A DNA stretch of 7,685 nucleotides from Candidatus Helarchaeota ASGARD archaeon Hel_GB_B (GCA_005191425.1 SUPR01000131.1:1-7685); one strand, 5' to 3'; shown: positions 4,863 through 6,048, counted from the first letter of the stretch. Numbers and translations: made by a program. Notes: generated by a model not told the origin, from the letters alone.

Positions 4863-6048
4863 TCAATGTATGTCTTTTAATAATCTCCTTGCTATCACCA
4901 TTCTTTGTATTTCAGAGGTGCCCTCATAGATTTTAGCCATATAATAACTAATGTTAAGATATTTCGGCCATCTTAGCATCTCTAAAATAACGTTCTACTT
5001 GGTATGCCTTCATTAGACCATAACCACCATGCACTTGAACTGCCATATGAGCGGCTTTCATGGCAGCTTCACTTGCCATTAATTTAGCCATAGACGATTC
5101 CAAGCCATAATCTAATCCTTGATCGCAAAGATAAGCTGATTTATAGGTAAGAAGTCTAGCAGACTCAATAGTGCAACCCATATCGGCAATTTTCCACTGA
5201 ACTCCTTGAAATTGAGCTATTTTTCTACCAAATTGTTCTCTTTCATTAGCATATCTTATAGATGCTTCTAAACACGCTTGTGCAAGCCCAACACATTGAG
5301 CAGCGATTATTATTCTTCCAAAATCCAAAATTTTCAATACGATTTTAAATCCATTACCAATACCGCCTAAAATGTTTTCTTTGGGTACTCTAACATCTTG
5401 GAACACAAGTTCTGAAGTATTTGAAGCTCTAACCCCTAACTTATCTTCTTTTACCCCTACGGAGAACCCTGGTGTATCTGTATCAACTATAAATACGGTA
5501 AAACTTGGGTGTTTGCCTTTCTCACCTGTTCTGGCTGCAACTAATAAAGTTTTAGCTATACCACCATTTGTAGCAAAAATCTTACTTCCATTTAACACCC
5601 ATTCATCACCATCAAGATATGCATTCGTTTCTATACCAGCTGCATCAGACCCTGCATTCGCTTCTGTTAAAGCAAAAGCACCTAACCGCTCACCAGTGGC
5701 TAATGGATATAAAAACTTTTGACGCTGATATTCATTACCAAAAATCCAAAGAGGATATGCAACAACACTACAATGTACTCCGACTGTAATTGCCCAAGAA
5801 GCATCAATTCTCCCAATTTCCTCTATTATTATTGCAAAACTAACTGTGTCATTTTGTAATCCTGCTCCTCCGTATTTTTTTGGAATGCAAATACCAAAAT
5901 AGTTCATTTTCTTCATTAATTCAAAAACTTTCTGGTTAAGTTCTTGCTTTTTATCACTCTCTTCCGCAATAGGTGCTATATATTCTTCGACAAATTCTCT
6001 GGTTATTCTCCTGATCATTTTCTGTTTTTCAGTAATTGAAAAATCCAT
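4863..6048 (-). CDS. Acyl-CoA dehydrogenase (short-chain/butyryl-CoA dehydrogenase-like), split gene: complement(join(4863..4932,4964..6048)), 384 aa after removal of a 31-nt intron
   Basis: Exon 1 has GAFALTEANAGSD, LNGSKIFATNG, KLGVRAS, REQFG, QVHGGYG and ERYFRDAK. The conserved C-terminus [18 protein letters not shown] lies in the +1 frame at 4931..4866, with TGA at 4865..4863. Start taken as ATG 6048 (MDFSITE), preceded by GTGGT. The ACAD family call is secure. The spliced model is a prediction. Confidence 0.9.
4933..4963 (-). other. Putative 31-nt bulge-helix-bulge (archaeal tRNA-endonuclease-type) mRNA intron, AAUAUCUUAACAUUAGUUAUUAUAUGGCUAA
   Basis: Outer helix AGAU(4973-4970)/AUCU(4931-4928). 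Central 4-bp helix GGCC(4969-4966)/GGCU(4938-4935). Three-nt bulges GAA(4965-4963) and AAA(4934-4932). Inner helix AUAU(4962-4959)/AUAU(4942-4939), then UAAC/GUUA closing an AUUA loop. Cleavage after the 2nd nt of each bulge gives GA|A AUC UAU GAG and restores the frame. Confidence 0.85.

Follow-up and report, generated by a model that had tools for sequence, protein, structure and literature searches.

A probable bulge-helix-bulge intron in an acyl-CoA dehydrogenase gene of a Helarchaeota archaeon, with an exon-exon stem that synonymous-site selection appears to have helped to build

The stretch of DNA analysed here (the window; 7,685 nt, GCA_005191425.1 SUPR01000131.1:1-7685), from the Asgard archaeon Candidatus Helarchaeota archaeon Hel_GB_B, carries on its minus strand a gene for an acyl-CoA dehydrogenase (ACAD) that is split by a 31-nt insert at 4963-4933 into two exons (6048-4964 and 4932-4863). 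Sequence comparisons and folding models together make it probable that this gene encodes a butyryl/short-chain-type ACAD, that the insert is an archaeal intron of the hBHBh′ type (a bulge-helix-bulge, or BHB, motif with outer helix h, central helix H and inner helix h′), and that a stem formed between the two exons, which would act as a clamp across the junction, has been built in part by selection on synonymous sites. The features on which this reading draws are as follows, in window positions.

4964-6048, minus strand: ACAD exon 1, with its ATG at 6048 and the GA of a Glu codon as its last bases
4863-4932, minus strand: ACAD exon 2, including the Glu codon of the YEG motif (4925-4923) and the stop codon (4865-4863)
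4933-4963, minus strand: predicted BHB intron, 31 nt, with an in-frame UAA at 4956-4954
4975-4989, minus strand: exon-exon stem, 5′ strand, codons Tyr-Phe-Arg-Asp-Ala, partner 4922-4908
4908-4922, minus strand: exon-exon stem, 3′ strand, Gly-Thr-Ser-Glu-Ile (GGC ACC UCU GAA AUA)
4970-4973, minus strand: outer BHB helix h, 5′ strand AGAU, 4 bp with 4931-4928
4928-4931, minus strand: outer BHB helix h, 3′ strand AUCU, partner 4973-4970
4966-4969, minus strand: central BHB helix H, exon strand GGCC (from AUG GCC), pairing with intron 4938-4935 (GGCU)
4963-4965, minus strand: 5′ bulge GAA, 3 nt, with a putative cut between 4964 and 4963
4932-4934, minus strand: 3′ bulge AAA, 3 nt, the counterpart by symmetry of the 5′ bulge, putatively cut between 4933 and 4932
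4939-4962, minus strand: inner helix h′ and apical hairpin (AUAU/AUAU plus UAAC/GUUA), h′ being 4962-4959/4942-4939, 4 bp

The translation of exon 1 matches the Pfam domains Acyl-CoA_dh_N, Acyl-CoA_dh_M and Acyl-CoA_dh_1 (over positions 1-133 of the 150 in this last profile), and that of exon 2 matches Acyl-CoA_dh_1 at positions 131-150 (23.4 bits, above the curated cut-off), such that the exons cover contiguous positions of a single profile. Exon 1 also aligns to residues 5-360 of the 378-residue chain 5ol2_C, its best solved relative (PDB name, “Acyl-CoA dehydrogenase”), which we take to be the butyryl-CoA dehydrogenase of the bifurcating Bcd-EtfAB complex of Clostridium difficile; the best solved relatives also include 6fah_C, CarC of the caffeyl-CoA reductase-Etf complex. 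Excision of 4963-4933 rejoins the interrupted Glu codon (GA/A), restores the sequence found in intron-less orthologues and gives a product of 384 residues. The glutamate of YEG, presumably the catalytic base as in ACADs generally, sits in exon 2, three codons downstream of the junction, and the unspliced reading ends at the in-frame UAA (4956-4954) inside the intron; an unspliced message would therefore give an inactive protein. Public assemblies annotate the gene as a 364-aa product stopping inside the intron, and NCBI records for at least two of the six same-species assemblies (L265-L270) also annotate an orphan 25-aa open reading frame (ORF) for exon 2. Downstream of the ACAD gene and in the same direction (2415-4449, minus strand) lie EtfB and then EtfA, the latter with an N-terminal 2x[4Fe-4S] ferredoxin domain, and the ACAD-etfB spacer of ~410 nt (4450-4862) is extremely AT-rich (about 19% G+C).

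Read along the minus strand, exon 1 runs into the intron as CGU UAU UUU AGA GAU GCU AAG AUG GCC GAA AUA UCU UAA, and the text at the 3′ junction is AUG GCU AAA AUC UAU GAG GGC ACC UCU GAA AUA CAA. A preliminary description of this DNA had proposed that the exons form a long stem around the intron, and re-reading the sequence bears this out: UAUUUUAGAGAUGCU (4989-4975) pairs antiparallel with GGCACCUCUGAAAUA (4922-4908) at 14 of 15 positions, with G-U pairs at 4984/4913 and 4975/4922 and a single A·C mismatch at 4979/4918. The same pairing is present in the minimum free energy fold of 4995-4900 (RNAfold, -22.8 kcal/mol), which contains both the hBHBh′ motif and the 15-position stem and in which, as had also been proposed, the stem extends the 4-bp outer helix across a small internal loop, here of 1x5 geometry (A4974 opposite 4927-4923). 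The hBHBh′ motif comprises a central helix (4969-4966/4938-4935, three G-C pairs and one G-U), two opposed 3-nt bulges, helices h and h′ of four pairs each, and cuts that would restore the gene, placed by the rule of cleavage between the second and third bulge residues that is documented for cbf5 (PMC2738675). A search of 4700-5200 against Rfam returned no match. A near-direct repeat, AUGGCCGAAAU / AUGGCUAAAAU, occurs at 4961-4971 and 4930-4940, 31 nt apart, because the BHB has pseudo-two-fold symmetry, and the 3-nt microhomology AAU is found at both intron ends, where it could permit a precise deletion.

The stem and its codons were then compared with null models. The fold of 4995-4900 has z = -3.19 relative to 200 dinucleotide shuffles, one of which was as good. 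Synonymous resampling with the genome's own codon usage (from 1108 long ORFs) gave stems of 10.1 ± 1.4 pairs, compared to 14 observed (P(≥14) = 0.0045), with a stem energy of -1.3 ± 4.1 kcal/mol, compared to -13.5 (P = 0.0018); for the whole target fold the resampled value was -3.3 ± 4.7 kcal/mol, such that the native fold, at -22.8, is far better than its synonymous alternatives (P = 5e-5). This excess carries the caveat that about 10 of the 15 stem pairs (two thirds) are inherent to the conserved YFRDA/GTSEI motif in AT-rich codons, which is self-complementary at, for example, UAU/AUA, UUU/GAA and AGA/UCU. Five G/C-ending codons at the junction, AAG, GCC, ATC, GGC and ACC, had previously been singled out as atypical, and they indeed make up 15, 9, 11, 12 and 11% of their respective synonymous families in this genome. 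The third positions of all five lie in G-C pairs of the fold, as likewise claimed: G4972-C4929 (AAG with ATC), C4966-G4938 (GCC with the intron), C4920-G4977 (GGC with GCU) and C4917-G4980 (ACC with GAU). As a background for flank duplexes, a genome-wide scan for canonical hBHBh′ motifs joining open frames (at least 60 upstream codons, a filter by which N-terminal introns are missed) returned 317 candidates, most of which join adjacent genes by chance; the duplex of the 30-nt flanks at the ACAD intron, at -16.2 kcal/mol, is the strongest among 127 BHB-like candidates in this genome. Separately, a suspected second intron in the paralogue at C26:1587-2672 (flagged “TAA inside”) was rejected, as its TAA lies upstream of that gene's start codon.

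To place the insert among its relatives, 161 species-level genomes of the class were searched by pattern, together with public metagenome contigs. The same-site insert was found in seven of the 161 genomes, namely the present one (G000; 31 nt) and G082, G048, G040, G096, G102 and G140 (30 nt), and the contig scan added 11 further loci, for 17 distinct intron-bearing sequences overall. The insertion site is constant, within the Glu codon (GA/A), and conserved across about 30% nucleotide divergence; exon 2 is intact and conserved in all intron-bearing members, and six independent public assemblies of this species agree on every base of the intron. An in-frame stop lies inside the intron in all 17 variants, in the 30-nt type as UAA or UAG at a fixed place (columns 55-57 of alignment A2; window 4954-4956), and G040 retains the A of column 57 despite a lost central-helix pair (G·A). 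The insert is absent from the same-genus G001 and from most other orthologues, a search of 91 genomes with completeness of at least 90%, drawn from the phylum's other classes, found no same-site insert, and intron-bearing genes are scattered on a protein tree of 124 genes. Sharing of one site by seven of the 161 genomes and 11 metagenome contigs, with exon 2 conserved throughout, supports the earlier suggestion of a maintained intron rather than a recent insertion. The G140 bin holds both an intron-bearing copy (C73:2998-3074, L184) and a ~90% identical intron-less copy (C145:437-489, L245) on a 1.9-kb contig; the latter has a 14/15 stem with GGT ACC TCT and may be a paralogue or come from a bin that mixes strains or species.

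Intron-bearing and intron-less genes differ at the junction in both pairing and codon choice. The seven intron-bearing genomes have 12-14 stem pairs and duplex energies of -11.4 to -15.8 kcal/mol, whereas the medians over 112 junctions of intron-less orthologues are 9 pairs and -4.4 kcal/mol (one junction reaches 14 pairs) and the paralogues in G000 have 6-8 pairs, such that intron-less relatives generally lack the stem and its codons. Thr is encoded by ACC in 17 of 17 intron-bearing sequences compared to 16 of 112 intron-less ones, Gly by GGC in 15 of 17 (GGT in the other two) compared to 8 of 112, and Ser by TCT or TCG in 17 of 17 compared to 27 of 112, where AGY forms the majority. Across five independent tree contrasts, the intron-bearing member had the stronger stem in about 4.9 and the weaker in none (five-pair sign test, with a P-value floor of 0.0625). 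The earlier suggestion that the M-A before EIYEG supplies the GGCC of the central helix held only in part: AUG GCC does form the exon strand of that helix, but M-A or M-G is found in intron-less orthologues too, so that selection of these residues for that role is rejected and they show no adaptation to the intron at the amino-acid level.

Covariation among the intron-bearing sequences provides a further line of evidence. RNAalifold, applied to the sixteen 30-nt sequences, independently predicted the BHB and the stem, and the geometry of the two 3-nt bulges is the same in all 17. The target structure has 89% of its cells paired and nine pairs changed on both sides; its covariation score is reached by 0 of 500 shuffles, and slid controls of the same structure were about 40% paired. 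Helix h is paired in 98.5% of cells in the 17 sequences; the central helix is paired in 87.5% of cells in the relatives, with two covarying pairs and an exon strand that reads GGGU, GGCU or GGCC with matching changes in the intron; and the 9-bp intron hairpin of the 30-nt relatives has five covarying pairs. Perfect 4-3-4-3-4 motifs are present in G000, G082 and G140. Two of the covarying pairs are formed by exons only and are synonymous: Arg position 1 with Ser position 3 (A-U in 9 sequences, C-G in 6, unpaired in 2) and Lys position 3 with Ile position 3 (A-U in 6, G-C in 6, G-U in 4, unpaired in 1). None of 500 shuffles scored as high at these two synonymous pairs, and all four combinations of their states are present among the sequences; the proposed search for compensatory changes was thus positive at both. 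Together with resampling and the intron-less comparison, this supports the view put forward in the preliminary description that synonymous-site selection keeps the splice substrate folded.

We propose that the stem may serve both before and after cleavage. In a thermodynamic model, the BHB core (eight pairs) in its 301-nt context has a mean pair probability of 0.84 with native codons and of 0.12 once GGC ACC UCU gives way to GGA ACA AGU, the codons most frequent in intron-less genes, or to the corresponding codons of G001; similarly, the post-cleavage exon-exon duplex is predicted at -20.0 kcal/mol natively and at -7.7 with GGA ACA AGU, helix h alone contributing -0.5. The stem would thus nucleate the BHB, making it the dominant fold in a short, AU-rich core, and the pre-mRNA, folded as hBHBh′, would be cut by the splicing endonuclease EndA in both 3-nt bulges. 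After both cuts the central helix would depart with the intron, leaving the exon halves held only by h and the stem, which could clamp the two mRNA halves together for ligation by RtcB and so permit restoration of the ACAD reading, including the YEG glutamate. Under this mechanism, YFRDA...GTSEI would supply ~10 of the 15 pairs and synonymous selection (GGC, ACC, UCU/UCG, GAU, and Arg position 1 with Ser position 3) the rest, with the outer helix likewise arising from synonymous choice (AAG/AUC or AAA/AUU).

The required machinery is encoded in the same genome, which has two matches to EndA (PF01974; C36:44408-44659, 98.6 bits, and C98:28593-28853, 75.1 bits) and one RtcB gene (C105:31216-32520, 568 bits). 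The presence of two EndA paralogues is consistent with the broad-specificity (αβ)2 form of the enzyme. Furthermore, Aragorn recovered 8 uninterrupted tRNA genes in this 3.5-Mb, 94% complete genome, and a few more with introns allowed, such that most of its tRNA genes seem to be interrupted. Few uninterrupted tRNAs and two EndA genes would suit an intron-rich lineage whose endonuclease has broad specificity, a situation described for Asgard archaea in bioRxiv 10.64898/2026.10.13.758758.

The association between codons and intron could also have arisen by linkage without selection, if a single intron originated in a GGC ACC UCN allele and spread by homologous recombination with the codons hitch-hiking, a reading we regard as unlikely although part of it applies in genus g7. 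ACAD genes of this genus are mosaics, with ~98% identity upstream and ~63% from about 100-250 nt before the intron to past the stop codon (compared for G096 L182 with G042 L049 and G093 L198, and for G048 L042 with G091 L195). Relative to the intron, the segment of G096 from -750 to -250 matches that of the intron-less G042 and G093 at 97-98% identity; in exon 2 together with the beginning of the 3′ flank, its identity to these two drops to 63-64%, whereas it reaches 93-96% with the other intron-bearing g7 genes. In the ~110 nt that follow the intron, ~40 nt of which lie past the stop, G048, G096 and G102 are likewise much closer to one another than to intron-less relatives. Homologous recombination has thus exchanged intron-bearing and intron-less 3′ ends within g7, and its intron-bearing members, sharing one origin, do not count as independent evidence. 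Between the deep lineages (G000, G082, G040, G140 and G048), however, exon 2 (66-80% identical) is no more alike than the rest of the gene, and codon identity at identical residues is ~50% gene-wide, near saturation for this codon bias; even so, ACC, GAT and GAA are retained in five of five and GGC in four of five. Retention of stem codons at saturation, together with covariation of paired synonymous sites in all four combinations, favours purifying and compensatory selection over hitch-hiking. Pre-adaptation alone, by which the intron would have been gained or tolerated solely in alleles that already had a strong YFRDA/GTSEI stem, with no continuing codon selection, also strikes us as quite improbable. 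In its favour, the motif by itself yields 10.1 of 15 pairs, 14 of the 112 intron-less orthologues have at least 12 pairs, and strong stems occur in the G140 clade whether or not the intron is present, yet this reading is at odds with the compensatory changes among intron-bearing lineages, the invariance of ACC and GAT across saturated lineages and the weak stems of close intron-less relatives such as G001 and G091. The strong-stemmed intron-less genes, moreover, adjoin intron-bearing ones on the tree, where recent intron loss fits equally well.

Two other readings dispense with splicing altogether. A dead gene, in which the 31 nt are a disrupting insertion that is never removed, would agree with the truncated 364-aa product of public annotation, but it is very improbable and was rejected, as exon 2 is open and amino-acid-conserved in 17 of 17 variants despite many synonymous differences, lineages with about 30% divergence share exactly the same insertion site, covariation backs the folding of the insert into a BHB, and the EtfAB operon is intact. 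Translational bypass, a hop like that of T4 gene 60 from GCC (4968-4966) to GCU (4937-4935) by way of the near-repeat, would make use of matching Ala codons 31 nt apart and a stop three codons past the first, and is scarcely credible: the take-off and landing codons match only in G000 (GCC/GCU), the 30-nt relatives keep the BHB with unmatched codons, and the hop product would read MAKIYEG rather than the conserved MAEIYEG, the near-repeat itself being explained by the pseudo-symmetry of the BHB. As for the favoured reading, a spliced intron with a clamp stem partly shaped by synonymous-site selection, several observations weigh against it. Within g7, part of the codon-intron association is linkage through recombination, and the g7 members carry one G·A mismatch in the central helix, so that their motif is relaxed rather than canonical. 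The sign test rests on five contrasts, and its P-value cannot drop under 0.0625. Six intron-less orthologues (G002, G016, G058, G087, G103 and the second G140 copy) reach the -11.4 kcal/mol of the weakest intron-bearing gene, so a strong stem does not require an intron; given their position near intron-bearing genes on the tree, these six fit either recent precise loss or predisposition, and pre-adaptation may have made some contribution. Finally, the folding probabilities come from thermodynamic models at 37 °C that ignore ribosomes and proteins.

The locus would add a metabolic enzyme gene to the archaeal BHB mRNA introns, in an intron-rich lineage, and the comparative case for it is unusually strong, combining a conserved site, helix covariation that includes two synonymous-only pairs, and codon choice that tracks intron presence. 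It would thereby offer a concrete case of coding sequence bent to serve an RNA-processing structure, a possible reason being that a tRNA has a body to keep its cleaved halves in place, which an mRNA lacks. On a practical level, such introns make gene callers truncate real genes, and a search for the clamp signature might bring further examples to light. A broader generalization, which we consider doubtful at present, is that Asgard mRNAs carry BHB mini-introns with a dedicated synonymous-site clamp needed for RtcB ligation, that such units recombine between species, and that their pre-catalytic placement gates the enzyme by splicing; if true, gated splicing with clamp units would mean structured, protein-enzyme-dependent mRNA splicing in the closest prokaryotic relatives of eukaryotes.

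Flanking helices are familiar from archaeal pre-rRNA processing stems and pre-tRNA anticodon stems, where they present the BHB and keep the ends together for ligation or circularisation. In contrast to these non-coding helices, both strands of the ACAD stem are coding, so that its construction has to rely on the choice of synonymous codons inside a conserved enzyme motif. In the literature searched, archaeal endonuclease-dependent mRNA splicing is confirmed for cbf5 (coding; PMC2738675) and HVO_1309 (5′ untranslated region; PMC7714728, PMC10485636) only, and no paper turned up that treats BHB introns of Asgard protein-coding genes or synonymous constraint around such introns. Interrupted tRNA genes of Asgard archaea (bioRxiv 10.64898/2026.10.13.758758) use the same splicing system, with half of the motif contributed by exon and two EndA paralogues common, but that account covers tRNA genes only and no mRNA. 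The BHB intron of Haloferax volcanii HVO_1309 (PMC7714728; PMC10485636) is likewise an mRNA substrate of the tRNA splicing endonuclease and is spliced in vivo, but it differs in being processed by an α2 enzyme and in lying within an untranslated leader, which leaves no interplay with codons. Closest is the cbf5 pre-mRNA intron of Crenarchaeota (Watanabe 2002; Yokobori 2009, PMC2738675): both are short BHB introns inside coding sequence, beside or within the codon of a catalytic residue, with a patchy distribution and inferred losses, and with conserved exon-pairing ends around a variable interior, and the cut between the second and third bulge residues that heteromeric EndA makes in cbf5 is the one we assign to the ACAD intron. 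The two differ in host gene and in that splicing is experimental in cbf5 and predicted from sequence here; furthermore, the 15-position exon clamp, the synonymous covariation and the codon-intron association set the ACAD intron apart, synonymous sites not being discussed in PMC2738675. On this comparison, the predicted ACAD intron belongs with the BHB mRNA introns already known (cbf5-type), with its putative exon clamp documented in unusual detail.

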